DNA of 26,759 nucleotides, taken from the IMG/VR virus record IMGVR_UViG_2728369186_000003. One strand, 5' to 3'. Below, piece after piece: positions 625-26,759 of this stretch. Below the pieces are notes generated by a model. It was not told the DNA's origin and ran no database searches. It saw only the letters and a list, made by a program, of their open reading frames with translations. Positions within the stretch are counted from its first letter, which is position 1; every line of letters begins with the position of its first letter. This stretch comes from a virus. Taxonomy: Duplodnaviria > Heunggongvirae > Uroviricota > Caudoviricetes. Both the position numbers and the translations under genes were made by a program.

Positions 625-635
625 ATTCACCCCAC

Positions 636-662
636 AAAAAAGCCCGCCTGAACCGGCGGGCT
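636..662 (-). terminator. Putative rho-independent terminator downstream of lom
   Basis: Plus strand reads AAAAAA-GCCCGCC-tgaacc-GGCGGGC; on the minus strand this is a 7-bp GC stem followed by a T6 run, 27 nt after the lom stop. Confidence 0.5.
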
Positions 663-688
663 GTCATAACACTGTGTTACCTGGCTAA

Positions 689-1288: not shown

Positions 1289-1310
1289 AATTACCTCTCG
1301 CTTTTCTGCA

Positions 1311-1340
1311 ATAAAAAAGGCGTCATTCCTGACGCCCTTT
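1311..1340 (-). terminator. Putative rho-independent terminator between J and lom
   Basis: AAAAAA-GGCGTCA-ttcc-TGACGCC-CTTTATT; hairpin with A-run on one side and T-rich run on the other (could act in both directions), directly after the J stop at 1359. Confidence 0.45.
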
Positions 1341-1358
1341 ATTGGGGTTATAAATATT

Positions 1359-4300
1359 TCAACGAATACTGATGCCGGAAGCGGCTTTTTTGGTCACAAT
1401 CACCGTACAGTCGGTGATATTGCCTGCCCCCTGATTGCCTTTCTGGAAAATCTTAAACTCCAGAGTGACGCTTCCCCTGCCACTCGGCATATCAATAACT
1501 GCACTGTAACTACCGGGAATGGCCCCTTTAGTTTCTCTGGATGCGATTAATACGCCGTTTTTGCGAACTTCAAAACCATAACCCGTGTATCGCGTGCCTC
1601 CTGGGTTATTTCCGCTCCCCGGATCGTCATACGCTATACCGTTAAAAATAATGGGCGGAATAATAATCTGGCGGTCAAAGTTATGATCATCGCTGATGGT
1701 GACTGTAACCGTACCGTTTGGTGTTTCCGTGTTACCCCACGTACCGACTTTTTTCGGGAAGGCTTTTGATACAGCTTTAACGAAATCTCCTCTGACCTGG
1801 GTCGCCTCCAGCATGCCCTTAATCGTACAGTTCTGGTTAATCGTGACATTGTTGAGCGTTCCTGAGTTCGCATTCACACTGCCACTGATATCCGCATTTT
1901 TCGCCGTCAGTCTCCCGTCTGATGTCAGGGAAAATGCCGGAGGATTACCGCCGCTGGTAATGGTGGGGGCCGTCAGGCGTTTCAGGAACACTTCATTCAT
2001 GAATATCTGATCGCCCTGACCAACAAACATCGGCTTTGTGTTGCCATTCGCAGGATTAATCATCGCAATCCTGTCTGCTGCCAGCAGCACCTGACTCTGC
2101 ATGCCGTCAGGGGTGTTCTCAATACCGGCACCGATACCCGCAATATAAAGGCGTCCGTCCTGCATCTGCTGCAGCTTCACTGCCCACATGCTGTTCAGGT
2201 TATTATTTGTATCAACCTGAACCTTCTGTATCTGCTGGATCGCTGCACTCTGGTCTTCCAGTTTCTTATTGACGGTCTGTGTTATTTCATTGCTGACATC
2301 CGTTATGGACGTCCTGATTTCAGTCAGGTCAGGCGCAAGCTGACCGTTATCAATCTGCGTCCACAGCTCCTGAGCCAGATGGGTTTTCCCTATCTCGCCT
2401 TTGAAAAAATCCAGATAGCCTGATGCATCATCACTCGGCTGACCGACAGCCTCCACGAATGCCGATTTGCCAACGGTGTTCACACTGCGAACGTAAAAAT
2501 AATAATCATGGCCCGGTTTGATATTGATACTGGCGGCTATCCAGTACAGCGCCGTACCAAGATAGCGCGCTGTGGTTTCAACCTGCCTGATATCCGCAAT
2601 CCGCTTTTCCGAGAACCAGAACTCAAACTGTACCGTCGGATCATAAACCGCAAGATGCGGCGTGGCGGTTATCTGAAAATACCCCGGTGTCAGCTCAATC
2701 TGCGACGGCGCTGCCGGTGCGGCAATCCGGAACGATACCGATGCCGGATCGCCCTGCTGCCCCCACGCATTTACTGCCCGGACTGTCAGCCTGTAGTTCC
2801 CCAGCGCCAGTTGTGTGAAGCGGTATGTGGTTTCCGCCGTCCGGGCTGTGCTGACCAGCCGCTCACTGCCGTCATCCGCTGCCACGGTCAGGCGAAGCAT
2901 GAAACTCACGCCCTTCACCACCTTCGGCGTATCCCAGCGGGCCAGTACCTGATACTCCCCGCTGTCTGCGGTGACTTCGGCAGTCAGGTGCTGCACTGCT
3001 GGCGGCGTGACACCATTCACCGTGCCGCTCTGGTCGCCGTCAAAGTGCGCCCCGTTATCCACGATGGCTTCTTTTTCCGGTACATGCTGCACGGCAGTGA
3101 TGGCATACGTACCGTCATCGTTCTCACGGATACTCACGCAGCGGAACAGGCGCTGGCGCAGCGTCGGCAGCTTCAGCCCCCACACGCTGTATCCGGCAAC
3201 GCCGTCAGGAACACGGCTCACTTTTACCTTCACGCCGTCGGTGACGGACTGGGCCTCCACGCTGACCGGATTGCCACTTCCGTCAACCAGGCTTATCAGC
3301 GTGGTACCGGAGGATGGCAGCGTGATTTCACGGTCGAGCGTCAGCGTCCGGGTCTGGCTGTTCACCGCCAGCACGCGCCCGCCGGTGCTGATCCCCGCAT
3401 AGTCATCATCACAGATTTCAATGACATCACCTGGTACATGGCGAAGCCCTTCGGCACCCACGCTGAAGTCCACGGTCTGCGTTTCCAGCAGTTCTGTTTT
3501 AATCAGCCACAGCCCGGCGCGGTGTGCCTGCCCCCGACTGGTACAGCCAAAGGCATCCATCTTCGTGACGTTACGACCGTAACGGGCAATGGCCTGCGTG
3601 TCCTCCACAAGCTCTGTCGCCGTCTCCCAGCCGTTATCCGGGTCAATCCAGTTCACCTCAACGGCATTATGGCGGTCCTTCAGGGCGCTGAAGCTGTAGC
3701 GGAACGGCGCACCATCATCCGGCATCACCACATTACTGCGGTTATAGGTCCACACCTTATCCGACGGTCGGTCCTGCACGAACGTCAGCGTCTGCCCGTT
3801 CCATACCGGCATACAGCGCATCGCCGAGCAGAAATCACTGAGAACATCCCACGCCTTACGCTGTGTGGTCAGCCAGGCATTACAGGTGATGCGCGGCTCC
3901 GTGCCGCCAAAACCGTCCGGCACCGACTGGTCGCAACACTGGCCGATGACATACAGCGCCCATTTATCCACATCTGCCGCACCAAGACGTTTACCCATGC
4001 CGTAGCGCGGGTGGGTCAGCATATCCCACAGACACCAGGCCATGTTGTTGCTGTATGCTGGCTTAAACGTTCCGTCCCAGATACCGCTGTATTGCCGCGT
4101 CTGCGGGTTATAGTTCGACGGCACCTGCAGAATGCGCCCGCGCAGATGATAATTACGGCTCACCTGCTGGCTGCCGAACTGCTCCGAATCCACCTGCACG
4201 CCGACCAGTGCCGTGTTCGGGTAGCACTGTTTCACATCGATGATTTCGNNNNNNNNNNACGCCCGCGAAGATGATAATTACGGCTCACCTGCTGGCTGCC

Positions 4301-4981
4301 GAACTGCTCCGAATCCACCTGTACGCCGACCAGTGCCGTGTTCGGGTAGCACTGTTTCACATCGATGATTTCGGTGTATGACGACCAGAGCGTTTTGTTC
4401 TGCAGCTGGTCTGTGGTGCTGTCCGGCGTCATCCTGCGCATCCGTATATTGAACGGGCGCGGCGGCAGGTTACCCACCACCACCGAGGCCAGATACTGTG
4501 AGGTGGTTTTGCCTTTAATGGTGATGTCTTTTTCCGTCACCCAGCCACCGTTACGCTGTATCTGAACCAGCAGGCGGACTTCCGACGGATTCCGGTCCCC
4601 CTTTGAGGTGGTTTCCACCAGTGCCTGCACGCCGAAGGTAAAGCGCAGACGGTCGATGTTTGCAGACGTAATGGTGCGGGTGATCGGCGTGTCATATTTC
4701 ACTTCCGTACCCAGCACCGTCTCGGAGCCGGAGGATTCAAACCCCTCCGGCGGTGTCTGCTCCTGCTCACCGGCACGGAACACCACCGTGACACCGGAGA
4801 TGTTGGTATTCCCCTCAGTGTCCAGCACCGGCGTACTGTTCAGCAGCACGCTTTTTAATCCATCCACCGGACCTTCAACCGGCCCTTCGCTGATGGCATC
4901 GATCACACTCAGCAACTGCGTGGACTTCAGGTTGTCCTTCGCTTCGCGCGGAGTATGCCCCTTACTGCTGCCTTTACCCAT
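1359..4981 (-). CDS. J: Tail tip / host specificity protein J (central tail fibre), interrupted by a 10-N gap at 4250-4259
   Basis: Track ORFs 4232..4981 (249 aa, [18 protein letters not shown]...) and 1359..4235 (958 aa) are the N and C parts of one J-like protein. Both carry the peptide [36 protein letters not shown] because about 110 bp is repeated on each side of the gap with 2-3 mismatches. Size (about 1170 aa after removing the overlap) and position after gene I match lambda J. Frame across the gap is not trustworthy. Confidence 0.8.
4250..4259. other. Run of 10 N (assembly/scaffold gap) inside gene J
   Basis: Literal nnnnnnnnnn; sequence 4140-4249 is almost identical to 4261-4380. Confidence 0.95.
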
Positions 4982-5003
4982 TCCTCACGCTCCATAAACG
5001 ACA

Positions 5004-5023
5004 AAACCGCCCGGAGGCGGTTT
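5004..5023 (-). promoter_or_regulatory. Hairpin in the I-J intergenic region, just upstream of the J ribosome-binding site
   Basis: AAACCGCC-cgga-GGCGGTTT is a perfect 8-bp stem. On the minus strand it is followed by TGTCGTTTATGGAGCGTGAGGA then the J ATG. Could be an attenuator/terminator or a translational control structure. Confidence 0.35.
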
Positions 5024-5041
5024 CACATAAAACGTTTTTCA

Positions 5042-5687
5042 TCAGCGACCAATCACCACAACCTGACCACCGTCCCCTTCGTCTGCCGTGCTGATCTCCT
5101 GAGANNNNNNNNNNCGCGCATTTCCCCGTACAGAACAGGCAGAACATTGCCCTGGGCAACCATGTTATCCAGTGAGGAGAAATAGGTGTTCTGCTTACCG
5201 TTATCCGTTGTCTGTGTACGGGGAGTTCTGGCTTTCGGTGCCAGCATCTGCGCCACACCACCGAGCACCATACTGGCACCGAGAGAAAACAGGATGCCGG
5301 TCATACCACCGGCCCCAATGGCTGCCCCCCATGCTGCAAGGGTGGCTCCGGCGGTAAAGAATGATCCGGCAATGGCGGCAGCCCCCAGGACAATCTGGAA
5401 TACGCCCCCTGACTTGGCCCCGGCGACTCTGGGAACAATATGAATCACAGCGCCATCAGGCAGAGTCTCATGTAACTGCGCCGTTAACCCGGACGTGCTG
5501 ACGTCCCGCCCGGCAATCCGTACCTGATACCAGCCGTCGCTCAGTTTCTGACGAAACGCCGGGAGCTGTGTGGCCAGTGCCCGGATGGCTTCAGCCCCCG
5601 TTTTCACACGAAGGTCGATGCGGCGACCAAATCGTTGTAAATCCCCGTAAAGGCAGATGCGCGCCATGCCCGGTGACGCCAGAGGGN
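5042..5687 (-). CDS. I: Tail assembly protein I, lambda-like allele (N terminus lost in gap at 5688-5697, internal gap at 5105-5114)
   Basis: Between the gaps the minus strand encodes PLASPGMARICLYGDLQRFGRRIDLRVKTGAEAIRALATQLPAFRQ...NVLPVLYGEMR. After the 5105-5114 gap it continues SQEISTADEGDGGQVVVIGR with a TGA at 5042-5044. This matches my recollection of lambda gpI closely. Confidence 0.7.
5105..5114. other. Run of 10 N (assembly/scaffold gap)
   Basis: Literal N run; the roughly 90 bp following it (5115-5205) nearly repeats the sequence following the 5688-5697 gap. Confidence 0.95.
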
Positions 5688-5697
5688 NNNNNNNNNC
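5688..5697. other. Run of 10 N (assembly/scaffold gap)
   Basis: Literal N run separating two diverged copies of the gene I coding sequence. Confidence 0.95.
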
Positions 5698-6264
5698 GCG
5701 CATTTCACCGTACAGAACGGGCAGAACATTGCCCTGGGCAACCATGTTATCCAGTGACGAGAAATACGTGTTCTGTTTGCCGTTATCTGTACTGGCTGCC
5801 GTGGGCGTCCTGGCTTTCGGTGCCAACATCTGCGCCACACCGCCCAGGATCATACTGGCCCCTGCCGCATACATACCCGATACAGCCGTGGCCCCCAGCC
5901 AGCCCACAGGGTTCCACCATGCAACCGCAATCAGCGCCGCCCCCAGCACTGCCTGAAAAATACCGCCACTTTTAGCACCCGCCGGACGCGGTACGATGTG
6001 GATCACGGCACCATTTTCCAGCGGCTCATTAAGACGGGCAGACAATTCAGTTTCACCTGCATCACGCCCGGCAATGCGTACCTGGTACCAGCCGTCGCTC
6101 AGTTTCTGACGAAATGCCGGGATCTGCATGGCCAGCGCCCGGATGGCTTCGGACCCCGTTTTCACTCGAAGGTCGATGCGGCGGCCAAATCGTTGTAAAT
6201 CCCCGTAAAGGCAGATGCGTGCCATGCCCGGTGACGCCAGAGGGAGTGTGTGCGTCGCTGCCAT
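5698..6264 (-). CDS. I: Tail assembly protein I, divergent allele (C terminus truncated by gap at 5688-5697)
   Basis: ATG at 6262-6264; MAATHTLPLASPGMARICLYGDLQRFGRRIDLRVKTGSEAIRALAMQIPAFRQ...YGEMR. Same family as the copy at 5042-5687 but with many substitutions in the central Gly/Ala-rich segment. Contiguous with gene K upstream. Confidence 0.7.
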
Positions 6265-6921
6265 TTGTCGGTGTACCTCTCTCGTTTGCTCAGTTGTTCA
6301 GGAATATGGTGCAGCAGCTCGCTGTCACCACAGTAAATGGCGGCATGATTCGGCACCGATGAACCAAAACAGCACAGCAGCACATCGCCCGGCTGCGCCG
6401 CTGACAACGGCACCTGATACAGCCCTGTGGCCTCCAGATTATCCAGATAGAGATTCTGACCGTGACGCCACCAGTCATCCTCGCGATGAAAATCCGGCAT
6501 CTCAATCCCCGCCAGATGGTAAGCATCCCGGAACAGCGTGTAACAGTCCGTCACCCCGTGCTCAAAGCGCCGCCCGGAAAGATGTGGCACACAGCGGAAC
6601 TTGTGAATCGCCCCCCGGCAAACCAGCCACCACGGCAAATCACTCTGCACCTGCAGCCGCCGGTCGGTCTCACTCAGCCAGGGCAGACCACCGGGGTGGC
6701 TGTGGACCAGCGCCACAATCTCACCCTGNNNNNNNNNNCTCTGCCCGCAGCCAGTCCTCCGGCGACATCCGGAAATACTCCTCCGGCTCACCGGAGATAT
6801 TCACGCAGGGAAAATATCTTTCCCCCTCCGGTGTTCTCACCACGAAGCCGCACGACTCCGCTGGCGCACATCGCCGGGCGTGCGCCAGAATCGCTGATTC
6901 TGTCTCTGTCATGGGATTCAC
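6162..6921 (-). CDS. K: Tail tip assembly protein K (JAB/MPN plus NlpC/P60-like), spanning the gap at 6729-6738
   Basis: Track ORFs 6721..6921 (MNPMTETESAILAHARRCAPAESCGFVV...) and 6162..6791 (...QGEIVALVHSHPGGLPWLSETDRRL...GVTDCYTLFRDAYH...). The HSHPGG...S..D JAMM-like motif and Cys/His NlpC-like motif are as in lambda K. ATG overlaps the L stop (ATGA). Confidence 0.8.
6729..6738. other. Run of 10 N (assembly/scaffold gap) inside gene K
   Basis: Literal N run; flanking codons (...WLRAE / QGEIVAL...) suggest only a few nucleotides are actually missing. Confidence 0.95.
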
Positions 6922-7616
6922 TGCGAAAGTTTGTTAATGGAAAGGAAGCCGCCAAAGTTGCCGACGTTATTGCGAAACTTACAGCCGCTCAGGCATTTGC
7001 TGCATTTATCCTTCGTGATATCGGACGTCGGCTGATCATATTCATCCGCGACCGCCGGACCGTGATAACCGCACTCATCACCGCGATAGGTCCAGGTGCA
7101 GGTGTTGGCCAGCATGATACGTCCCGGAAAAACGGCACCGTCCGTTTCCGTCGGCGTGGACAGTACAAAAGAGGCACTGACCGCGCTCAGTTCGCTGCAC
7201 TGCTCGATGCGCCAGCGGCTGATCACCTCCTGCTCCGGATCGGCTTCGCTGTTTCCGTTGACGAAGTTCACCGCATCCAGAAAGCGGGCGTAAACCTTAC
7301 GCCGGACCACCGTTCCGCCGACCAGACTCTGCAGATCTTCCGCCATCCCGGTGATCATGCCGTGCAGGTTAGAGACCGTCAGTGTCGGACGGGCAGCACT
7401 GCCCTTGCCGTTCATCTCAAATCCACTCCCCTGAATGGGATAGGCCTGATACTGCCGACTCTGCCAGGTGACAGACTCACCTTTTTCGTTCTGCTCATTA
7501 CAGAAAAAGTAGCGATCCCCGCCTACCTCGGTCAGGTCGATTTCCCAGAGCACCACGCTGGCCGACTGCTCCGCACGAATGCATTCATTCAGCGTTTCCT
7601 GTTGTATGTCCTGCAT
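6918..7616 (-). CDS. L: Minor tail protein L
   Basis: 232-aa [45 protein letters not shown]... with C-terminal Cys cluster (CTWTYRGDECGYHG...CSKCLSGCKF) like the Fe-S-binding region of lambda gpL. Position between M and K. Confidence 0.85.
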   Translation of the reverse strand: MQDIQQETLNECIRAEQSASVVLWEIDLTEVGGDRYFFCNEQNEKGESVTWQSRQYQAYPIQGSGFEMNGKGSAARPTLTVSNLHGMITGMAEDLQSLVGGTVVRRKVYARFLDAVNFVNGNSEADPEQEVISRWRIEQCSELSAVSASFVLSTPTETDGAVFPGRIMLANTCTWTYRGDECGYHGPAVADEYDQPTSDITKDKCSKCLSGCKFRNNVGNFGGFLSINKLSQ

Positions 7617-7954
7617 CAGATCACCACTTCGTCAAACTGACACGAAAAATCGGTATAGGTGATATGTTCTGTCGCTGACCACGTTCGACACACCACTCTG
7701 ATTTTTCTGTTAATACCCGGCGGGCGCCAAAAAAAAGATTTATAGCCTTCATGCCGGGCTAAAAATTTTTCAAATGAATCACGTTCATTCGCCTCAACTT
7801 TGAAATCACAGGTGAAAACGCGCAGAGAATGATTAAGTCCATTTGGACTTCGTTGCTCATAACCATCGCCAAATCTTACAGTTTTTATCGATGGTTTATT
7901 TTCTGTTTTCATTCCATCCTCTGGTAACCAGTGAAATTCTTCCGTATTAGCCAC
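7616..7954 (-). CDS. M: Minor tail protein M
   Basis: 112-aa ORF containing [16 protein letters not shown]...FFWRPPG...[10 protein letters not shown], recognised as lambda gpM-like. Overlaps the tape measure stop by 8 nt and the L start by 1 nt. Confidence 0.75.
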
Positions 7955-10900
7955 TTAATATTCCCCCATCACGTCGCATATTTAACAGATTGCCCTGCAC
8001 CCGCTGATCAACCATCCCCATAAGTGCTTTTATTGCCTGAGGGCCAATCTCTCCATTCTGGCCGTCATTTTGAATAGTGATTTGGTATACAGGGGCATAG
8101 GTAATATCTCCGCCTCCATTACCACTTTTACTATTAATAGCTCTGACACCAAGAGAACCATCGGAAGTTCGTGTTAATGGCATAATGGCTTCCGGTCCAG
8201 CCTCACCAAAAACACCAGCCCCTTTTGCAAAAGCAAAAAATTGCGGGGAATCATAAATACCGTTCGAATACGTGCTCAATGACGGAGACTCATAAACACC
8301 GCCCTTTGCATTCGGAATAAATTTACTAATAGCACTCCCGATAGTTCCTAAAATCCCCCCAGAAGAACTGTTACTAATGCTGTCGAAAATCCCAGTAATT
8401 GAAGCCTTTAATGCCATTCGACTAAGATCCGAAATCACGGAAGTAGCGAAAGAACGAAAATTTGCCTTGCCTGTCGTGACAAAATCACCCAGCGCATCGG
8501 TCATCCCATCAAACATCTGAGTCGTGGTTGATTTTATCTGCTCACTGATATCCTTAGTGTCATCCAGCCAGTTATTGAATCCCTGGGAGGCACCACTAAC
8601 CCAGTCTCCTGCCTGAATATCGAGCTGCTCGTTTTTCTGTCTGACAATTTCTTTTTCCCGTTCCAGAGCATCATTCAGAGCCTGCATTTTCTCTTGAAAA
8701 ACATGATCTGACATTCCACGGGATTTATCTGCATAGTCACGTTCAAGTTGCAGACGCTGATTGTTATATCCATGTTCAATCCGCAGTAATTCCTGCTGGC
8801 GTTGCTGATTTTTATCGCCAACCCCATAACCAGCAATCTGAATATCATACCCCTGCTGACGATTATCAATCGAAGCCTGCAATGAATCACGCCATGCTGT
8901 TATTTCGGCGGATTCCTTGATTAGCCTGTTATTCTTTTCAATCGCAACATTTTTCTCCATCAACGCGGTTATTTCTTCCCGGTGTAAGAGAAGCGATTTC
9001 TGATCCTGGGTTAATTTCGATGATGGTCGTGACTCTAGGTCGGCAATCCGCTGACGCCACTTAACCAGTTCCTGTTCAGAGGAACTTAATTTAACGGTCA
9101 ACTCAGCTTGTGAACTTAGTAACGCATTCTGTTGATTCAGATGATCAATCATTCGTTGGGCTGCATCATCAGAATAACCTTTCGCCTTTGGTTGCTTTGG
9201 ATCTTTATAACGCTCATTTATTTGAGCGATAAGATTATTATATTCTTCCTTTGAATACTGATTCTTTAGCTTTTCCAGTTTTGCAAGTTCACTAGCTCTC
9301 TGCTGCTCCCGGGTCTGATATTGTTTTGAAAAGGCATCTGCTCTCTGTCTGAGTTCAATTCCTTCCTGTTGTCGCTTGTTGTAATCGTTTATTGATGAAT
9401 TTAGTACGTCCTGAGCAATTTTTTCTGCTTGAAGTACGCCCAATTGCTGCTTTAATCGTGCCAGCCTTTTATTTTGAGCTCCGCCATCTCCAATGCCACC
9501 TAACCCGAAAACTCCGGGTCGGGTATTTTTTTCTATTTCATCAATTTGACGGAGAACATCTGAGATTTTTTGATCAAGGGAGGCCTCACGGCCAATATCC
9601 AGCATGGAATCCCATGCCCATTTTGCGGAGTCTGCGACAGCTTTCCATGCAGTCTCAAGATAACCAAGATTTTCTTTAATCTGGTTGGTGCGCTGGATCA
9701 TTGAGGATGAGTATTCTTCTGTCGCAATGCGGGCGGCCTCCTGCTGGTTCCCTTCATCCTGTAGCGCCTTAATCTGGTTATAAGTCGCAAGTGTCAGAAA
9801 ATGGTACTGATCATTAAGTTTTGATATGGCACTGACAGGATCCTTTGCAATTTCATTGAAGTCATTAACCAGTTGTTCGGTTGATATTCCTGTTACTTCG
9901 CTCGTTTTTACTATCGCTGTCGTCACTTGCTCCAGCGAACTGCTCGCTACCTTTCCCGAACGCACAAGCTGATTTAATACTGCCGCCGCAGCACCAGTTG
10001 TCGAATCAGCCGCATTCCCGGCACGTTGAGCTATATCGCCCAATTGCCCGCTGGTTGTCCCCAACTGATTTCCGGTAAGAATAAGAGATTTATTAAATTC
10101 GTCCTGCTCCTGAGAGCCTTTATAGTAAGCCAGTCCTAAGACCCCAACGGCTGCTGCGGCCAGGGTAAAAGGATTAATTAATCCCAGCACATAAGAACCT
10201 ACACCTTTGATCGCCGGGCCAATCCCACCGAACATATCTTTTAGCTGGCCGCCCTGCTGCATTAACACCATAAATGGCGACTGACCAGTGGACAACCCAA
10301 CAACAATATCCGTCATTTGTGCAGGCAACATGCGCATAGCAAAAGCCGTTTGTTTTGCCGACATTCCGGTTTTGCTTAATTGTGATTGAGTAACCTCAAG
10401 CTCACTCCGCATAGCACGAAGTTTTCCAGAAAGCTCCTCATACATTTCAGGAGAAAGCATCCCCTTAGCTTTTGCTTCATTGAGCTGTTTCTGTTGTTCT
10501 ACCAGACGATTAAAAGCAGTTCCGACAGGATCAAGTTGAGCAATCAGACGTTGCAAAGCAACAACCTGTTCATCATGCGCTTTTGCTGCTTCTCGCTCTG
10601 CCTGAGCCTCTCCGGTAAGCTCTCGCCGTGTTTCCTGTATTTTTCGGCTATAATTCTCAAACTGAGAACCATTTATTTTCCCGGATGCAAACGCAGCATT
10701 AAGTTCATCATGCTGTTGTTCAAGATTTCTTAGCGCCGCAGCCAGAGGGTCGATCTTGTCCAGCATTCTTTGAAAGGCCTGAGCCTGCGCTTCCTGCTGG
10801 GCGGCAGCAAGTTTTCCGGCCTTCTCGGCTTCTCTCTGCGCTTGCGCAACCCCGCTCAATTCCTCTGTGGTTTCATTAAGTTTACGGACAAGAAATTCAT

Positions 10901-11180
10901 ATTCTTCTTTATCAATAAGCCCTTTATCGAAAAATTTCTTTAATTCAGAATAGCGTCGACCGACAGTATCAATTGCGGCACCAACTGGATCAATAGCTGC
11001 TTTTAATTTTGCGAGCGCGTTCTTCTCATCTTCTGTTGCCTTAGTCACTTTCCCTGCGCTATTTGCAGCAGTTTCCCCAGCCTGCGTCATTTTGACTAAT
11101 GAGGAGGTCAGATTGTCAGCATTATTTTTCGCTCCAGTGCTATCAATAATTATTGCGAGACGCGAGGTTTGCTCTGCCAT
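7947..11180 (-). CDS. Tail tape measure protein
   Basis: 1077-aa ORF, highly alpha-helical/coiled-coil composition (Ala/Gln/Glu/Lys/Leu-rich) with a Gly-rich hydrophobic segment. Position between the G/GT chaperone and M. The gene is visibly more AT-rich than its neighbours. SD AGGAG precedes the ATG at 11178-11180. Confidence 0.85.
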
Positions 11181-11203
11181 TTATTAAAACTCCTGACAAC
11201 AAA

Positions 11204-19535: not shown

Positions 19536-20846
19536 TTAAATCCGAAGTGATGTGACTCTTCCGGTCGGTTTGACAATAGGGAATTGCTTAACGATGAAAT
19601 AACCTCCGGCATCATTCGGGTGATCATTGCCAGATTTTTTATCAGGCTCCCCCTTATCATCCCAGACCTGTTGCTCCAGAGATTCGGCATATACCGGACA
19701 ACGCTTCACATTAACTTTATAGCGACGCTCACCATTGGCATTGCAGAACATTGCATTCATTGAGTTAACGCGATCTTTTACTGGCGGGTTCGAGCTGTTC
19801 ACCACAACGTTAAAACCTGCCTGCTTAAGCTGGGCTATATCCGTCGTACTTGCGTTACTTGATTTTCTGGAATCTCCGGAAGCATCTGGATAAATATAAA
19901 TCTCCCTCACTTTCCGGTAATCATGCCCGTCATACAGCCAGAAGCGTTCTTTAATGAGGCGGATCATATCCGGCGTATCGTAGGCATTGATGATTTCAGT
20001 TACCGCACATGGAAGCCCCAAACGCAGCACATGGACGATTCCCGCCATCTTTCCAACGTTAAAATCCATCCCAATATAAATCGGCTCCCCTGGCTGCTCC
20101 ACTTCTTCGCAATTATTCAGTTTCCGGTCAAACTGATGGTAAACAGTACCACTTGTCAGGTTAGTAAACCGTCCTAGAAGATAGGCTTTAATCAGCTCTG
20201 GAGGGTATGATTCAAGAAGTGAAGGAATGTAATCTGCTGGCAGGTTCTTTTCATTATCGAAAGTAGATGCCTGCACCAGACCATACAGTGAGGCCAGCTC
20301 TGTTTTTTCACGCACGGCTTTAACAAACTGCTCGTAGACAAATTTGAATCCTTCCGGCGTGGTTGTAACGTCAATACCGTTGCGAAGTCCATCAATCTTA
20401 TAACGCATACGCGCAATTATCTTGCGCCACGCCGTTCTGGCTTTTTCCTTCGGCAAAATGTCCAGTTCATCCACCAGCGCATTACCAATTTTGAAACCGA
20501 CGATCGTTTGTGGCTTCTCCATCGATCTGCAGATAGTGGTTCCCCGATACTGGCGTCCGTAATAAAAGTGAACCTCTTTATTTCCCTCATTAATTTTTAC
20601 GTTCAATCCCCAGTCAGCAGCAACTTCTTCCACTGTAGGGTAAAAAATATCGCGAATTTGGGGATACGTTGGCGCAAAATATCCCTGATTTATACCTGGA
20701 TGCTCCCAAATCCCCTTGCATATGCCGCCACACCCAACCCATGTTTTGCCCGAGCCAAAACCAGCAATATAGGCTTTAAATTTATGGGGCATTGAAAGAA
20801 ATCGCGCCTGAGGCACATTAAGCGTCGGAGAGATCATCTTCATCAC
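19536..20846 (-). CDS. Terminase large subunit
   Basis: 436-aa ORF with N-terminal Walker A-like P-loop (YIAGFGSGKTW) and a C-terminal nuclease-type region with conserved acidic residues (IYIGMDFN...YPDASGD). Follows the small subunit gene with overlap. Confidence 0.85.
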   Translation of the reverse strand: MMKMISPTLNVPQARFLSMPHKFKAYIAGFGSGKTWVGCGGICKGIWEHPGINQGYFAPTYPQIRDIFYPTVEEVAADWGLNVKINEGNKEVHFYYGRQYRGTTICRSMEKPQTIVGFKIGNALVDELDILPKEKARTAWRKIIARMRYKIDGLRNGIDVTTTPEGFKFVYEQFVKAVREKTELASLYGLVQASTFDNEKNLPADYIPSLLESYPPELIKAYLLGRFTNLTSGTVYHQFDRKLNNCEEVEQPGEPIYIGMDFNVGKMAGIVHVLRLGLPCAVTEIINAYDTPDMIRLIKERFWLYDGHDYRKVREIYIYPDASGDSRKSSNASTTDIAQLKQAGFNVVVNSSNPPVKDRVNSMNAMFCNANGERRYKVNVKRCPVYAESLEQQVWDDKGEPDKKSGNDHPNDAGGYFIVKQFPIVKPTGRVTSLRI

Positions 20847-21912
20847 TCCTTAATCTGGCATCAACCACATTAATATTGATCGCCACAGGCTGGGGATGTT
20901 CATTATCCTCCACCGTTTCGATCTCTTTGCGCAGCTTCTGGTTCTCTATTCTGCGCCGTTCAATTTCCAGTTCCTGTAGCCGCTTATCTGCACATAATGC
21001 CCCGCCAGCAGAAAGCAAACGCAACAATTCACGCCGGGCGGCAGCCTTATCCTCCAGCAGGATCTCAACACCGTATTTTCCGAGCTTTGACCCTGCATAT
21101 AATTGCCGCGCATCCCCATCAAGCAGTGTGGTATCAGCCATATAAAGCTGTCCTGTTCCCTCACCGCAGCACTTCGGGCAATCAGGATTGGGTATGGCGT
21201 TATCAACAAAGCCGAGGCCTCCATATTCCGGCTCGGGTTTACCATCTCTGGAGGCCTGTGCCGCAGCCTTATCGAATTCTGCAATATCACGCCACTGGTA
21301 GAGATGATTCTCGCCCCAGCAATAACGGCAGTTAACACGGCGAAATTGTGCCAACTGATTGGGGTCGGCCTGGACAATGGCCATCAACTGGCTCACCAGT
21401 AAATCCAGGTCTGCGGTATAGCGTTTCTGGTACTGATTGCGGAAGTAGCTGATAGCACGATAAACCCTGGCATTTCTAAGCATACGGCTGGCGTTGCTGT
21501 TAGCTGTCGCACCTTGCCCCTCATAACCAGCCAGTCGGTATGCCTCTGTCGGCTTTTTCCCCTGAGCAACCAACATGGCGAATTTTGCCTGCTGGTCAGA
21601 AATACCGAATTCATCGGGGCAGAACGAAATTTCTTCCGTGTCCCCCTCAATCAGGAGTGCATCGGATACAGCCTTTTTTTTCTGAGATTTTCCGTTCTGC
21701 CTTTGCGCAGTCTGCGCAGTTTTTTTTCGCGCACTTTTTTGCGCAGTTTTGCGCATTTCTTTCTGCGCATTTTTCGGAGTTTTTTTGATGTAACGACGGG
21801 CTGTTGCGTAGTTCAGTCCCCTTGCTTCACACCATGCCACCGGAGATATACCGGAGCGGGTGTATTCAGCAATATACTCCTGCTGCAACGCCCCCCAGTC
21901 CGGTCTGCTCAT
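20818..21912 (-). CDS. Terminase small subunit, putative (unusually long, with Lys-rich linker and Cys-pair motifs)
   Basis: 364-aa ORF directly upstream of the large subunit. N-terminal HTH-like segment (SGISPVAWCEARGLNYATARRYIKK), a Lys/Ala/Gln-rich low-complexity linker (KNAQKEMRKTAQKSARKKTAQTAQRQNGKSQKKK), and CxxC...CxxCC pairs (CRYCWGENH...CPKCCGEG). Confidence 0.55.
   Translation of the reverse strand: MSRPDWGALQQEYIAEYTRSGISPVAWCEARGLNYATARRYIKKTPKNAQKEMRKTAQKSARKKTAQTAQRQNGKSQKKKAVSDALLIEGDTEEISFCPDEFGISDQQAKFAMLVAQGKKPTEAYRLAGYEGQGATANSNASRMLRNARVYRAISYFRNQYQKRYTADLDLLVSQLMAIVQADPNQLAQFRRVNCRYCWGENHLYQWRDIAEFDKAAAQASRDGKPEPEYGGLGFVDNAIPNPDCPKCCGEGTGQLYMADTTLLDGDARQLYAGSKLGKYGVEILLEDKAAARRELLRLLSAGGALCADKRLQELEIERRRIENQKLRKEIETVEDNEHPQPVAININVVDARLRSDEDDLSDA
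21700..21775. repeat. Cluster of short direct repeats (TGCGCA core separated by T/A runs) inside the terminase small subunit gene
   Basis: Plus strand: ctttgcgcagtctgcgcagttttttttcgcgcacttttttgcgcagttttgcgcatttctttctgcgcattttt. At least six TGCGCA-type units with T7-T8 homopolymers; encodes the KTAQK-type peptide repeats. Confidence 0.6.
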
Positions 21913-21915
21913 CAG

Positions 21916-22167
21916 TTAGTCCTGATTTTTATCCACCCTGAGTAGTTCGCGCAGAGCAAAGGCATCCCCTTTTCTGGCAAGCTTAAACAATGCCGCTCGT
22001 AACTCGGCTTCACCTTTCGCTCTGCCCTTACGGATGGCCGCATAAAAATCTGTCATTGCTTCCCGATTTTCTTTCAGTCGGTTCAGATCAACATCCAGAA
22101 CGTCAGCGATTTGTTGTGCAGTCATCCGGCACGCTGCCAGAGACTCGACTTTCGAATACGGAATCAT
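21916..22167 (-). CDS. Small HTH-like protein (83 aa), function unknown
   Basis: MIPYSKVESLAACRMTAQQIADVLDVDLNRLKENREAMTDFYAAIRKGRAKGEAELRAALFKLARKGD... The ATG at 22165-22167 is preceded by GGGGGTGA. Stop is 4 nt before the terminase small subunit start; its 5' end overlaps the upstream gene by 65 nt. Confidence 0.5.
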   Translation of the reverse strand: MIPYSKVESLAACRMTAQQIADVLDVDLNRLKENREAMTDFYAAIRKGRAKGEAELRAALFKLARKGDAFALRELLRVDKNQD

Positions 22168-23059
22168 TTGTCACCCCCATTGATATGCAGGGTGTCTTCT
22201 TCCTGTATTTTTCGTGAAGGATTTTTACTGCAGCGTTGTTCCAGGTGACCTGATGGTGAATGCGTTTATGGCTGGCACCCATCAGTGAGATTTTTACGCA
22301 CGACGGCGAATACATGACGGAGTAAAAACTTTTAACGTAGGTTCCGGAATCCAGATACAGCTCGGTCATTCCGCCGCTGTTTTTCTGCGTCTGTTTCTGC
22401 CCTAACTGGACAGCACCGATCGTCATAAACAATTCACCACAGCGACCGAGATTCGTGTACGTATTCACATCCTCGTTAATGCGCCCCATGAATGAGAACG
22501 GTCGATCAACCGAACAGATAAAGCTGTTCATTGCCTTGCGTTTCACCCACGAAGCATGGCCGCCATTGTCACCAAGAAAATCCCCGCCCTGCGACATAGC
22601 GATGGAAAGCGCGGGTATTGATTCGTAATACGCCAGCATTTCAGAAAGGATCGCATCCAGTTTCCTTATCGGGAAATAGGCCTGGTCATAGTTGCGATCC
22701 ACCCGAAACTGGAACTCGTGATAATCATCATCGAGCTGAATGAAGTATTTACACCCGACCAGTTTTGCCAGGTCGAAACAGGCATTACGGGCGTAAAAAA
22801 TTGAGCGGCGATCACCAAAATTATCGGCTTCGTCAAAACGACTGGCAATATCGGCTTTGGAAAATACCAGCACCTGTTCACCAAATTCAGCCATGTACTG
22901 ATGCCGTGTCTTATCTTCATCATCAACAACGATAAAAATTTTCCCGGTATAGCCAGCACGACGCAACGTCCGGTAAGTCAGAACTTTGTCCGGTCGCCCG
23001 TGAGTCAGAATAAAGGCGCAAAAATCATCACGCATATTCCTCCTCCTCCTCCCCGCCAT
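22103..23059 (-). CDS. Uncharacterised protein with two DxD-like acidic motifs (possible GT-A-like glycosyl/nucleotidyl transferase)
   Basis: 318-aa ORF. The N terminus has a strand-helix-strand pattern ending in an acidic cluster (FILTHGRPDKVLTYRTLRRAGYTGKIFIVVDDEDK), and a second motif lies about 60 residues later (FIQLDDDYHEF), reminiscent of GT-A fold enzymes. Family assignment is a guess from motifs only. Overlaps the ParB-like gene by 32 nt; alternative start 23035. Confidence 0.5.
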   Translation of the reverse strand: MAGRRRRNMRDDFCAFILTHGRPDKVLTYRTLRRAGYTGKIFIVVDDEDKTRHQYMAEFGEQVLVFSKADIASRFDEADNFGDRRSIFYARNACFDLAKLVGCKYFIQLDDDYHEFQFRVDRNYDQAYFPIRKLDAILSEMLAYYESIPALSIAMSQGGDFLGDNGGHASWVKRKAMNSFICSVDRPFSFMGRINEDVNTYTNLGRCGELFMTIGAVQLGQKQTQKNSGGMTELYLDSGTYVKSFYSVMYSPSCVKISLMGASHKRIHHQVTWNNAAVKILHEKYRKKTPCISMGVTNDSVFESRVSGSVPDDCTTNR

Positions 23060-23822
23060 GCATGATCTCCACCATGCGCTGCGTCATTCGGACAAATCCA
23101 TTTTCAATAGCCTGCTGATAATCAATGATCACCAGCGCCGACTCCTCGAAAAGGCACTGAATTTCAGCGGGGGCATGAGCGTAATAGTCCGCAATTCTGC
23201 TGAAATTAAACACTGTGTGACGTTCTGCCGCACACAGGAGGAATTTCTCAATATCAGGATCAAGGGACGCCGAACGTATCCGGCTGATCAGCTCCTGAGT
23301 TTTCGTATCGTCGTACAGTTCACTGATATCCGGTTTACCGCCCGACGGCTCATAAACAGGCGTATCAATTTTCGTCGTATACGGCTCCTCCTCATTTCCT
23401 GTACCGGGCAAAACATCCGTCAACAGTTCATCAATTTCTGTCGGGATGAAGCCTGTCAGGGAGACATCAAAATCAGCATTGATTAGGTCCGACAGCTCCA
23501 TCCGCAACAGATCTTCATCCCAGCCAGCATTCATCGGCAGGCGATTATCTGCCAGGCGGTACGCCTTTTTCTGCTCATCCGTCAGGCCAGACAGAACAAT
23601 GACCGGAACAGAATCCATTTTGAGCATTTCAGCCGCCATAACACGACCGTGACCCGCAATAATTTCGCCCTTTTCGTCAATCAGCACCGGATTAGTCCAG
23701 CCGAATTGCTTAATACTTTCTACCAGTTGTGCCACCTGCTCAGTACTGTGCGTCCTGGCGTTGTGCGCATACGGTGACAATTCTTGTAATGGGCGATAGA
23801 CTATCTTTAATTTCTCGCTCAT
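23028..23822 (-). CDS. ParB N-terminal (ParB/sulfiredoxin-like nuclease) domain protein
   Basis: 264-aa ORF. The N-terminal 100 aa carry the signature I.YRPLQELSPYAHNARTHS..Q...L..SI..FGW..PVLID..GEIIAGHGRVMAA..L....VPVIVL....D.Q..AYRLADNRL. The C-terminal half is acidic and ends in EEEEEYA. RBS AAGG is 5 nt upstream of the ATG at 23820-23822. Confidence 0.8.
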   Translation of the reverse strand: MSEKLKIVYRPLQELSPYAHNARTHSTEQVAQLVESIKQFGWTNPVLIDEKGEIIAGHGRVMAAEMLKMDSVPVIVLSGLTDEQKKAYRLADNRLPMNAGWDEDLLRMELSDLINADFDVSLTGFIPTEIDELLTDVLPGTGNEEEPYTTKIDTPVYEPSGGKPDISELYDDTKTQELISRIRSASLDPDIEKFLLCAAERHTVFNFSRIADYYAHAPAEIQCLFEESALVIIDYQQAIENGFVRMTQRMVEIMHGGEEEEEYA

Positions 23823-23850
23823 ACAGCCTTGCTTTATGAATAAAACGCAC

Positions 23851-23874
23851 CCCAGCAGCCAGTGCTACTGGGGG
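23851..23874 (-). terminator. Weak hairpin downstream of trkG (possible moron terminator)
   Basis: CCCCAG-(12-nt loop)-CTGGGG; on the minus strand followed by GCGTTTTATTCAT. Loop is long, so support is weak. Confidence 0.3.
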
Positions 23875-23959
23875 CGGAGGTGTTGCTGGTAAAGTTAGGT
23901 ATTGGATCAATGAGTGAGTCAACATAATATTAAACTCACAATTATAAATCAGCCATATA

Positions 23960-25417
23960 TTAGGAGCGCCAAAAAAAACCTGAAAACAATATAATAACAG
24001 GATAAATTTCAAGGCGACCAAGAATCATAGCTATGCACATTAAATATTTTGCAATGTCATTAAGCACTCCGAATGACGATGCAGTAGCCCCAAAACCTAA
24101 TCCCATATTATTAATACATGCAGCCACTGTTGCAAATGATGTAAGAAAATCATATCCCATACCATTTAACACCAGTATAAAAAACACCGTGAAGAGAGTA
24201 TAAAGAAAAAAGAAACTCCATACAGACCTCATTACACGATCTGTAACTATCTTCCCTCCTACATTTACACTCAACAACGCTCTGGGATGAGAAAGCTGAT
24301 TTATCTCGTGTTTGCTTTGTTTGAAAAGTATAAGAAATCGAAGTGACTTAATTCCACCACAGGTTGAACCTATACATCCCCCAAAGAAACTTGACAACAG
24401 CAAAAACACTATCGTGTGCGTGGGCCAGTTTGCATAATCCTGCGTAGCTAAACCATTATCAGTGAGCATGGAGCTGGCAAGAAAAAACGAATGAATAAAA
24501 CTTCCATGCAAGTCATACATACCTATATGCCAGACCTGGAAAGAGGTAACAATGATCACCCCTAAGGCTATTAACAGAAAGAAACGAAGTTCAATATCTC
24601 TGATTAAAGGTTTTATCGTTTTTCTGCTAATAACAATATACCAAAGAGTGAAGTTGAAAGCCGATAGCAGGGAAAAAGAACCAGCCACCAGCTCAACCAA
24701 ATAGTTATTAAAATATCCGATACTCTCGCTATGAGTTGAGAAACCACCAAGCGAAACTGTGGAAATCCCGTGACAAATAGCATCAAACAAAGGCATTCCT
24801 GCAAGTCTATAACAGACAATACAAGCAATACCTAATAAAGAATAAGTTATCCACAGTGTCCGTGACGTATCGGCCAGGCGGGGAGTGAGTTTGTCATCCT
24901 TAAATGGCCCCGGCATTTCTGACTGATAAAGCTTTGCACCACCAATACCCAATAATGGCAATACTGCAACCGCCAGAACAATAACTCCTAAACCACCTAT
25001 AAAATTTAACTGTGACCGATAGTACAAATATGCCCGAGGTAATGAACTAACATCATCAATTACAGTTGCTCCTGTTGTTGTTATTCCAGAAACCCCTTCA
25101 AACAGAGCATCAATGAACGTTAAATTAAGTTCTGAGTCAAACCATAAAGGGAATGCACTAATAACAGAAAACAAAATCCAAAACATTACAATTATAATAA
25201 ACCCATCACGGGTACGTAATTGAATGCCAGATTTCTTAGTTGTATACCACGCTCCGCCACCAATGCAAAAAAATATAACGAAAGTTATAAAGAAAACGAA
25301 CAGGCTTTTTTCTTTATAAAACAATGCTACAACCATTGGTGGCAACATTGAAAGACTATAGAGCCAAACCAGGAACCCACACATATGAGTAACAACTCTT
25401 ACATGAGATGTATTCAT
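23960..25417 (-). CDS. trkG: TrkG/TrkH-family potassium uptake membrane protein
   Basis: The track ORF (23960..25435) begins at a TTG; the first ATG is at 25415-25417 (MNTSHVRVVTHMCGFLVWLYS...), giving 485 aa. Many hydrophobic helices and repeated GxG-type selectivity-filter-like motifs (TTTGAT, LGGFS, GSTCGG, NMGLGFG). Recognised as E. coli Rac-prophage TrkG from memory. The gene is strikingly AT-rich compared with flanking phage genes. Confidence 0.85.
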   Translation of the reverse strand: MNTSHVRVVTHMCGFLVWLYSLSMLPPMVVALFYKEKSLFVFFITFVIFFCIGGGAWYTTKKSGIQLRTRDGFIIIVMFWILFSVISAFPLWFDSELNLTFIDALFEGVSGITTTGATVIDDVSSLPRAYLYYRSQLNFIGGLGVIVLAVAVLPLLGIGGAKLYQSEMPGPFKDDKLTPRLADTSRTLWITYSLLGIACIVCYRLAGMPLFDAICHGISTVSLGGFSTHSESIGYFNNYLVELVAGSFSLLSAFNFTLWYIVISRKTIKPLIRDIELRFFLLIALGVIIVTSFQVWHIGMYDLHGSFIHSFFLASSMLTDNGLATQDYANWPTHTIVFLLLSSFFGGCIGSTCGGIKSLRFLILFKQSKHEINQLSHPRALLSVNVGGKIVTDRVMRSVWSFFFLYTLFTVFFILVLNGMGYDFLTSFATVAACINNMGLGFGATASSFGVLNDIAKYLMCIAMILGRLEIYPVIILFSGFFWRS

Positions 25418-25554
25418 ACCTAAATATTCTTTCAATTATAACCACCTTGCTGCAATATTATGATTATACTGTATAAAATTTAACTCCTCTTAGATCTTAC
25501 TTCACTGTTCCTTATGAAACAATCATCAAAATGAATCATATTGTAGTTAAGATT

Positions 25555-26019
25555 TTACTTTAAACACTGTTCGGTTATGTATTGCTGAGCACCTTCAAGT
25601 TGGGCCTGCATCATTACCAGTCGTTCCCGGAGGGTGAAATAATCCCGTTCAGCGGTGTCTGCCAGTCTGGGGGAGACTGCATTATCCACGCTGGAGGTGG
25701 CGGTGGCTTCACGCACTGACTGACAGACTGCTTTGATGCGCAACCGACGACGACCAGCGGCAACATCATCACGCAGAGCATCATTTTCAGCTTTCGCATC
25801 AGCTAACTCCTTCGTGTATTTTGCATCGAGCGCAGCAACATCACGCTGACGCATCTGCATGTCAGTAATTGCCGCGTTCGCCAGCTTCAGTTCTCTGGCA
25901 TTTTTGTCGCGCTGTTCTTTGTAGGCGATGGCGTTATCACGGTAATGATTAACACCCCATGACAGGCAGACGACGATGCAGATAACCAGAGCGGAGATAA
26001 TCGCGGTTACTCTGTTCAT
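25555..26019 (-). CDS. Rz: Spanin, inner-membrane subunit (Rz, i-spanin)
   Basis: ATG at 26017-26019 ([60 protein letters not shown]...). N-terminal TM helix then coiled-coil periplasmic domain, close to lambda Rz. Start overlaps the endolysin stop by 4 nt. Track start at 26031 is a GTG. Confidence 0.9.
25614..25799 (-). CDS. Rz1: Spanin, outer-membrane lipoprotein subunit (Rz1, o-spanin), embedded in Rz in another frame
   Basis: 61-aa [55 protein letters not shown]... with lipobox VVGC, proline-rich periplasmic segment, entirely inside the Rz coding region. Nearly identical to lambda Rz1 as I remember it. Confidence 0.85.
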
Positions 26020-26513
26020 TGCTGACCCCACAAACAGATTTCACGCTCAATCTCACGACGAGTCATGAGACCTTTCCATTGCTTACCGCCAGCATATGTC
26101 CAGCGACGTAGCTGATCACATGCGCCTTTGATATCGCCCTGGTTTATTTTGCGAAGAAGCGTCGATGTTCTGAAATTGCCAGCACCCACGTTGTAAACGA
26201 ATGAGTAAAGAGCGCCGCGCGTTGTTTCCGGTATATCGACTTTGATGTACGGGTTAATTTGTCTGGCGACCGTGGCAAGGTCTTTATTCAAGAGTGTTTT
26301 GCATTCTGCTTTGGTATACGTTTTACCGAGCATGATGTCTTTTCCTGTATGCCCGTGACATACAGTCCATACACCAACAATATCTTTGTATGGTATGTAG
26401 CTGACACCTTCCAGACCATCGTTACCACTTGGGCCAGTGATTAACACTGATGCTATAGCAATTGCTCCGCCACCAATAGCAGCAGCAACGACTTTTCGTA
26501 ATGATGGAGGCAT
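26016..26513 (-). CDS. R: SAR endolysin (phage 21 R-type lysozyme with signal-arrest-release N terminus)
   Basis: 165 aa: [57 protein letters not shown]... The Gly/Ala-rich weakly hydrophobic N-terminal helix is typical of SAR domains, followed by an E-8aa-D-5aa-T catalytic triad spacing ([16 protein letters not shown]) of T4-lysozyme-like muramidases. ATG overlaps the holin stop by 1 nt. Confidence 0.9.
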
Positions 26514-26728
26514 TATTCACCTCTCGCAGCCTTGCGCTTATCTTCTTTAATCTTGAAATAAAGGTTTGTCAGGTACGTCAGTAGGCCAAATACCAGACTA
26601 CCCAGCACACCGATTGCAGCCCACTGTGACGGAGTTACTCTATCGAGCAACTGTAAAAACCAGTAGCCAGCACTGCCTGCGGAGGTGCCGTAGGCAATAC
26701 CTGTTGAAATTTTGTCCATGGATTTCAT
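26513..26728 (-). CDS. S: Pinholin (phage 21 S-type class II holin) with dual-start motif
   Basis: ATG at 26726-26728 preceded by GGAGGTGA, encoding [71 protein letters not shown] (71 aa). A second in-frame ATG three codons later (MDK...) gives the 68-aa form. Two TM helices, the first Gly/Ala-rich. Track ORF extends upstream only because no stop intervenes. Confidence 0.9.
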
Positions 26729-26759
26729 AGCCTCACCTCCGCACGGAACGGATGGCATA

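Follow-up and report, generated by a model that had tools for sequence, protein, structure and literature searches.

The DNA analysed here, referred to as the window, is a stretch of 26.8 kb (26,759 nucleotides (nt)) from a Caudoviricetes virus record (IMGVR_UViG_2728369186_000003). ORF analysis places all of its genes on the minus strand, and they are described below in the direction of transcription. The most upstream gene of the window encodes the holin (26513-26758) and is followed by the genes for the lysozyme (26016-26513) and the i-spanin Rz (25555-26031; Pfam Phage_lysis, E = 1e-51), the last of which contains the embedded gene for the o-spanin Rz1 (25614-25799), annotated by PGAP as 'rzoR: Rz1 family lipoprotein' in identical genomes. 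DNA homology with the lysis cassettes of other lambdoid phages stops near 25630. Downstream of Rz come an AT-rich spacer carrying the putative trkG promoter region (25436-25554), the trkG coding sequence (23960-25435) and a second spacer (23823-23959; 137 nt, GC 0.416), which runs from the trkG stop codon to the start of a gene for a ParB_N/Srx-like protein of 264 amino acids (aa) (23028-23822; Pfam ParB_N; phrog_620, E = 2e-90). The interval studied, 23823-25554, is thus the exact gap between the Rz stop codon (25555) and the start codon of the ParB-like gene (23822), and two spacers of 137 nt flank the trkG ORF if the upstream one is counted from the annotated ATG (25418-25554). The ParB-like gene is followed by genes for a TAGT glycosyltransferase of 318 aa (22103-23059), an 83-aa protein (orf83; 21916-22167), the small terminase (terS; 20818-21912) and the large terminase (terL; 19536-20846), and then by portal, head and tail genes. 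An earlier note on this DNA had placed trkG between Rz/Rz1 and the packaging genes; the Rz/Rz1 side is correct, but the ParB-like gene, the TAGT gene and orf83 separate trkG from terS. The same note took the surrounding lysis and head genes to be intact, and Rz, the lysozyme, the holin, the ParB-like gene, TAGT, orf83, both terminases and the head and tail genes are indeed all complete in the window.

The central gene is one long minus-strand ORF in the late operon that ends at a stop codon at 23960-23962 and begins at either an ATG at 25417 (485 aa) or a TTG at 25435 (491 aa). Its product matches the Pfam TrkH family (PF02386) over the full length (E = 1.1e-144, 483 bits, profile positions 3-500 of 502), which agrees with the earlier description of a complete TrkG/TrkH-type transporter gene. 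Protein comparison with TrkG of Escherichia coli K-12 MG1655 (b1363) identifies the gene as trkG: 482 of 485 residues are identical, and the three differences are I93F, S330N and C458Y. The four pore-loop segments, EGVSGITTTGAT, STVSLGGFST, SSMLTDNGLATQD(327) and AACINNMGLGFG, are the same as in the K-12 protein and are invariant or almost so in an alignment of 12 members of the TrkG clade. Residue D327, five residues past the third-loop glycine and described as a TrkG-specific Na+ determinant (PMC9898762), is likewise unchanged relative to K-12 TrkG. K+ uptake by K-12 TrkG requires Na+ and the host protein TrkA, and Na+ itself is also taken up (PMC9898762); given 99% identity to this assayed protein, the window TrkG would be expected to mediate TrkA- and Na+-dependent K+ uptake. 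trkA is absent from the window.

TrkG shares its fold family, domain architecture and cytoplasmic partner TrkA with TrkH, the native E. coli protein (Pfam; PMC9898762). By contrast, trkH belongs to the core genome, has a GC content of 53% and is not regulated by H-NS, and TrkH is independent of Na+ and does not take it up (PMC9898762). TrkG forms a separate clade from TrkH in the Enterobacterales, with members from Escherichia fergusonii, Citrobacter, Pectobacterium, Pantoea, Enterobacter, Serratia and Xenorhabdus at 61-79% identity. The window protein also matches phrog_1916 end to end (1,041 bits), so TrkG is already on record as a protein that recurs in phages or prophages, although PHROGs labels this family 'unknown function' despite the established function of K-12 TrkG.

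The two possible start codons differ in their surroundings. TTG 25435 sits 6 nt downstream of AAGGTGG (25442-25448; a Shine–Dalgarno sequence found by direct reading of the sequence), and the annotated ATG 25417 has a marginal AGG at 2 nt as its sole Shine–Dalgarno-like sequence. Homologs in the TrkG clade are mostly 491 aa long and carry I, L, H or A at the position of the annotated E. coli Met1; their own starts align at the −18 position, with TTG in Pectobacterium and GTG in Enterobacter, and the E. fergusonii homolog has GGAGG, a 6-nt gap and an in-frame TTG at the same place. The phrog_1916 family, too, comprises 491 positions, and the 485-aa form of TrkG aligns from position 7. The true start is therefore probably TTG 25435, which would give a protein of 491 aa with the N terminus MKEYLGMNTSH, and annotation pipelines probably place it six codons too late. 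The earlier note had paired a 485-aa product with non-coding DNA at 25436-25554; the gene itself stands, but the two figures disagree, because the range implies TTG and 491 aa whereas 485 aa implies ATG 25417.

A sequence identical to the trkG region of the window is found in the genome of E. coli strain 1585m1 (NZ_CP086391), within a complete lambdoid prophage that adjoins ttcA and has the order intR-xisR-recET-kilR-sieB-repressor-replication-Q-like-holin-lysozyme-Rz-trkG-ParB-...-terminases-head-tail. Integration at ttcA together with this gene order is the site and order of Rac. The resemblance to the rzpR-rzoR-trkG arrangement that the earlier note pointed out was borne out in K-12 MG1655, in which the local order is the same (rzpR'-rzoR-trkG-ynaK). 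The two loci differ in what surrounds this core. K-12 Rac has no late regulator Q, holin or lysozyme upstream, whereas in the window holin and lysozyme are present and Rz is full length. Downstream, K-12 ynaK keeps only residues 1-89 and is fused at codon ~89 to ydaY, as against 264 aa in the window form, and the K-12 deletion removes the 3′ half of the ParB-like gene, TAGT, the terminases, and the head and proximal tail genes, all of which the window retains. The complete ParB-like gene is given the wrong label of a truncated ynaK pseudogene by annotation pipelines.

Several candidate expression signals lie on either side of trkG. The upstream spacer (25418-25554) has a GC content of 0.263 and holds two perfect TATAAT hexamers, at 25468-25463 and 25440-25435, in keeping with the AT-rich non-coding DNA and TATAAT-like hexamers described earlier; the −35 elements of both are weak. 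These hexamers come from a permissive manual scan. A generic promoter scan scored neither over threshold and returned fewer sites than in its shuffled controls, so the promoter assignment rests on published K-12 experiments and not on motif statistics. The hexamer at 25468-25463 appears to be the relevant −10 element, because the leader would then hold the Shine–Dalgarno sequence and the TTG, whereas the other hexamer overlaps the TTG; the exact transcription start would lie within the spacer. The E. fergusonii homolog, a chromosomal, non-phage gene with 79% identity, shows the same TATAAT...GGAGG-6 nt-TTG layout upstream, which suggests that trkG brought its expression signals with it. In the downstream spacer, the terminator scan and folding predict an intrinsic terminator (23839-23876), which consists of the hairpin CGCCCCCAGUAGC-ACUG-GCUGCUGGGGUGCG followed by UUUUAUU. 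The stem spans 23873-23850 and can be extended to 23876-23846 (10-13 bp); the terminator scan reports a 10-pair stem with 7 G-C pairs, and the hairpin is present in both the minimum-free-energy and centroid folds of the region (−38.5 kcal/mol, z = −2.4). What the earlier note had called a downstream hairpin is thus a strong G+C-rich stem with a U-tract. A second small hairpin (GUGAGU...ACUCAC) lies in the same spacer. No family in Rfam scored over threshold anywhere in the window.

Published data on trkG expression come from K-12, whose spacers are nearly those of this locus: the upstream one matches at 100% over 135 of 137 nt, and the downstream one shows 99.3% identity. In Genomic SELEX, RpoD holoenzyme revealed a constitutive promoter at K-12 trkG, one of very few in the K-12 prophages (PMC5811629). 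A lux fusion to the K-12 trkG promoter is active, and the mRNAs of trkG and trkH are of about equal abundance (PMC9898762). Expression is higher in hns and hns stpA mutants, which points to partial repression by H-NS and StpA (PMC9898762); trkG also belongs to the H-NS regulon and is 3.8-fold up on SlyA overexpression (PMC5797941). No benefit to the host was seen under the stress conditions assayed (PMC9898762). All of these expression data come from the deleted Rac of K-12, which is without Q and the late promoter region.

This last circumstance bears on the alternative that trkG is an ordinary late gene used for K+ homeostasis in lytic growth, transcribed by Q read-through, with the TATAAT hexamers incidental to AT-richness. 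Such a gene would be co-oriented with the late operon, as trkG is, and late transcripts should include trkG, given that the scan predicted no terminator between Rz and trkG; the −35 elements are, moreover, weak, and in DNA of 26% GC chance should yield TATAAT-like strings. However, the K-12 Rac prophage, without Q, holin or lysozyme, still expresses trkG at about the level of trkH from a promoter that is active in the lux fusion (PMC9898762) and bound by RNA polymerase holoenzyme in vitro (PMC5811629), and its spacer matches that of the window over 135 of 137 nt. We therefore consider a purely late role very unlikely; the autonomous expression that the earlier note had proposed is seen in K-12.

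The composition of the interval is equally distinctive. Its GC content is 0.374, compared with 0.501 in the rest of the window, and all 442 windows of the same size elsewhere lie above it (mean 0.50, s.d. 0.045, minimum 0.424). Computed in this way, the interval is far more AT-rich than the flanking genes, as the earlier note had judged by eye, and its concern that GC might turn out to be like that of the neighbours did not materialize. trkG itself has a GC content of 0.380 and a GC3 of 0.325, the lowest among 27 ORFs; two tail genes come next (0.345 and 0.385), so trkG is the extreme of the range and not an isolated outlier. These tail genes, and the high share of F, I and L residues in TrkG, with its lowering effect on GC at the first two codon positions, could be taken to mean that low GC is a by-product of a hydrophobic membrane protein and that trkG is an old native phage gene. 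Yet it is GC3, the measure least dependent on amino-acid content, that is lowest in trkG, and the non-coding upstream spacer is lower still; together, GC3 and spacer GC rule out a hydrophobic-protein artefact. An Enterobacter homolog 70% identical to TrkG has a host-like GC of 0.567 and a GC3 of 0.72, which indicates that the protein sequence does not force low GC, and other genes occupy the position of trkG in related phages. The explanation from hydrophobicity, largely refuted by GC3 and the Enterobacter homolog, is in our judgement highly improbable. For K-12, low GC (38% versus 53%) and prophage location had already been used to argue for a foreign origin of trkG (PMC9898762).

The trkG region is common in E. 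coli. Positions 23700-25700 are 100% identical to many E. coli chromosomes, and at least 1,541 of 5,426 complete E. coli genomes hold at least 80% of this 2-kb stretch. The segment with the ParB 3′ end and TAGT that K-12 lacks is present in 887 genomes, and 681 hold at least 80% of the 25-kb late region; full-size Rac-like prophages are already recorded in the literature. An intact-prophage context of trkG is thus common, not rare. Among 86 loci with a detected trkG cassette, 77 have the same flanks as the window, and in the other 9 the 5′ end of the ParB-like gene is incomplete or absent, in most cases where a contig ends or a deletion lies. GenBank 'phage' records ON4705xx that carry trkG were not accepted as induced phages, as they include the host genes dbpA and ttcA and originate from a study that predicted prophages. 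That trkG is a host gene beside the prophage, or was acquired through imprecise excision, as happens in specialised transduction, might be read into the loose published wording of acquisition 'through bacteriophage transduction' (PMC9898762) and the chromosomal location of its homologs in other genera, but it is already refuted by the position of trkG within the prophage and has next to no probability: the gene lies ~20 kb away from attL, the attachment site at the integrase end beside ttcA, is flanked on either side by phage genes in the middle of the late operon, travels with those flanks in 77 of the 86 loci and, together with them, is not detected in ~72% of complete E. coli genomes.

Relatives outside Escherichia show that other genes can stand where trkG does. 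A search with the ParB-like protein led to a prophage of Yersinia thracica and to 26 contigs from IMG/VR, arranged as lysozyme-Rz/Rz1-[slot]-ParB-Mom-orf88-terS, in which the ParB protein is 61% identical to that of the window and homologs of orf83 and terS are recognisable. All 26 contigs keep ParB-Mom-orf88-terS and have spanin or lysozyme genes upstream. In 25 of them the slot measures 649-2,695 bp and has a GC content of 0.34-0.46, always below that of its own locus, and its contents are unrelated between loci: a Ser/Thr kinase and PP2C phosphatase pair, YfbU-domain and P63C-domain proteins, and proteins without a Pfam match. trkG occurs in none of the slots of these contigs. The remaining contig, with a 15-bp gap, was rejected as an empty site, because a lysozyme fragment is fused there to the ParB upstream region in a rearrangement. 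Among these phages, the spanin–ParB junction is therefore a slot for variable cargo, bounded upstream by Rz and downstream by the ParB-like gene, and its occupant in Escherichia is trkG. Two further phages with ParB homologs, Yersinia phage vB_YpM_39 and vB_EcoM-613R2, do not show synteny and added no information.

Neither group of genomes offers an unoccupied version of the slot. With a synthetic query of Rz and ParB from which trkG had been removed, none of the 5,426 complete E. coli genomes had the two genes within ~1.1 kb, and directly adjacent flanking genes were not found in the Yersinia-type relatives either, in which the smallest slot is 649 bp. Insertion is therefore inferred from composition and slot variability and not from a before-and-after pair that would fix its boundaries. 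The cassette borders showed no transposon or insertion-sequence signatures, the direct or inverted repeats there being only short AT-rich chance matches. A donor search across 5.8 billion proteins returned nothing between 99% identity (E. coli and Shigella) and 79% (E. fergusonii). TrkG homologs are chromosomal in E. fergusonii, Pectobacterium, Enterobacter, Serratia and Xenorhabdus, in a neighbourhood that differs per genus, and their GC content in these five genera is 0.42-0.57, none as low as the 0.38 of Rac trkG. The drop from 99% to 79% and the differing chromosomal sites of homologs that never reach a GC of 0.38 suggest that trkG was captured long before Rac spread through E. coli, which is consistent with its near-invariant context there.

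The composition anomaly, the K-12 expression data and the variable slot in relatives support the reading of trkG as a horizontally acquired moron that the earlier note had put forward. A moron is an extra gene between conserved phage genes that has an atypical composition and its own promoter and terminator and is expressed from a repressed prophage; the classical lambdoid examples, in the concept of Hendrix and Juhala, are bor and lom of lambda and gene 15 of HK97. We regard it as very probable that 23823-25554 is such an element: a single-gene, low-GC cassette of a Rac-family prophage that has its own signals, is expressed in the lysogen and derives from a captured chromosomal gene. The trkG cassette is like the classical morons in being a single extra gene, in base composition and in its candidate promoter and terminator motifs. 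At 1.7 kb it is larger than most of them, and TrkG is a housekeeping-type ion transporter as against their surface or virulence factors. The adjacency of the flanking genes in insert-less relatives, by which morons are also recognized, was not seen for trkG, for which the variable slot supports a cargo site.

The working of such a cassette can be outlined as follows. In a phage that integrates at ttcA, the cassette sits between Rz/Rz1 and the ParB-like gene, co-oriented with the late operon, and would bring a sigma-70 promoter region (the 26%-GC spacer), a ribosome-binding site with a probable TTG start and an intrinsic terminator. In the lysogen, the cassette promoter would drive transcription of trkG irrespective of late transcription mediated by Q, with H-NS and StpA damping its expression, and the terminator would presumably keep this transcription out of the downstream ParB, TAGT and terminase genes. 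After induction, Q-modified RNA polymerase may read through both cassette and terminator, in which case trkG would be expressed in both states. The product would serve as the membrane subunit of the Trk K+ uptake system, with host TrkA as its partner and with Na+ both needed and carried. The gene, with its promoter and start region, was probably captured from the chromosome of a low-GC enterobacterium, and this capture would have preceded the spread of the phage lineage through E. coli.

Much of this has been established for K-12. trkG in Rac has been a textbook low-GC foreign gene since the 1990s, and its low GC, foreign origin, promoter, control by H-NS and transport activity are already known from published work on that strain. 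As a discovery the locus matters little, as hundreds of sequenced E. coli carry trkG in an intact prophage. The cross-genus comparison of the slot is new here, and the TTG start and the three genes between trkG and terS are modest refinements. A wider proposal, in which the Rz/Rz1–ParB junction is an accessory hotspot throughout the lineage and trkG, expressed in two modes, benefits the phage as well through K+ or defence, strikes us as rather unlikely. Benefits of this kind could include K+ supply during late expression, or countering defences that act through collapse of the membrane potential or K+ leakage. The spanin–ParB slot is, in any event, a good place to seek cargo genes in related phages.

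The trkG gene probably starts at a TTG codon at position 25435, giving a 491-aa protein, rather than at the annotated ATG at 25417 (485 aa; minus strand, window 25417–25448). We favour this reading of the sequence because a strong Shine–Dalgarno sequence lies 6 nt upstream of the TTG, homologues from other genera keep a TTG or GTG start at the matching alignment position, and the PHROG profile for TrkG has a length of 491. The encoded allele, which is identical in 28 of 80 IMG/VR loci, differs from TrkG of Escherichia coli K-12 by I93F, S330N and C458Y. In the K-12 protein, S330 contacts D327, a residue tied to Na+ dependence (PMC9898762). Given that N330 and Y458 are also present in several TrkG homologues from other genera, it may be K-12 TrkG that is derived at both of these positions.

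Phage records carrying trkG are also found in GenBank under names of the form ‘Escherichia phage vB_EcoS-...’ (ON470595.1 and its ON4705xx siblings). The host genes dbpA and ttcA are part of these entries, some of which are labelled partial genomes. The ON4705xx records derive from prophage prediction in clinical isolates rather than from the sequencing of virions. Finding them in a phage database does not show that Rac phages with trkG are viable.

In the Yersinia-type relatives (26 IMG/VR contigs, L115–L140, and L007), the slot equivalent to that of trkG, between Rz1 and the ParB-like gene, is hypervariable, ranging from 649 to 2,695 bp with a GC content of 0.34–0.46. Its cargo includes a Ser/Thr protein kinase and PP2C phosphatase pair (L124, 4160–5697), a YfbU-domain protein (L134), a P63C-domain protein (L139) and several proteins without a Pfam match, such as those encoded by three open reading frames (ORFs) in L131. 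One contig, L130, is rearranged over positions 1–2305: a piece of the usual lysozyme has been joined in frame to the region upstream of ParB, and a different lysis cassette (a peptidase-type endolysin, Rz and Rz1) lies, inverted, immediately upstream.

In some intact prophages, RefSeq labels the ParB-like gene as a 258-nt ‘ynaK’ pseudogene (‘incomplete, missing C-terminus’). This label appears to be an annotation artefact, with the name borrowed from the truncated K-12 gene; in the prophage locus L001 of the E. coli genome NZ_CP086391 the ORF is intact at L001 positions 21879–22670, encoding the full 264 aa with 100% identity to window 23028–23822. This ParB_N/Srx-like gene is overlapped by a 318-aa gene (the two together spanning window 22103–23822, minus strand) with profile matches to the Pfam family TAGT, ‘TET-associated glycosyltransferase’ (E = 6e-35), and to phrog_842, ‘beta-glucosyl-HMC-alpha-glucosyltransferase’ (E = 1e-103). 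We saw neither a TET/JBP nor a hydroxymethylase gene in the window, and none is listed in the annotation of the NZ_CP086391 prophage. In the Yersinia-type relatives (corresponding interval in L007, 5914–7097), the position of the TAGT gene after ParB is taken by a Mom-family DNA-modification gene. Just ahead of the terminase, the ParB-like gene appears to be partnered with an exchangeable DNA-modifying enzyme.

Immediately upstream of the gene for the 364-aa small terminase lies an 83-aa ORF (window 21916–22167, minus strand); it matches positions 145–218 of phrog_309, ‘terminase small subunit’ (E = 8e-23), and has a homologue at the equivalent position in the Yersinia relatives. Two ORFs may share the small terminase function, or the 83-aa product may be an accessory DNA-binding subunit.

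Within the tail module, the distal tail genes (window 1–7500) have a GC content of 0.55–0.60 and a GC3 of 0.60–0.70, and the tape measure gene and its neighbour (7600–11200) have values of 0.42–0.47 and 0.35–0.39, respectively. The sharp GC shift at about 7500–7650 suggests a mosaic junction inside the module.
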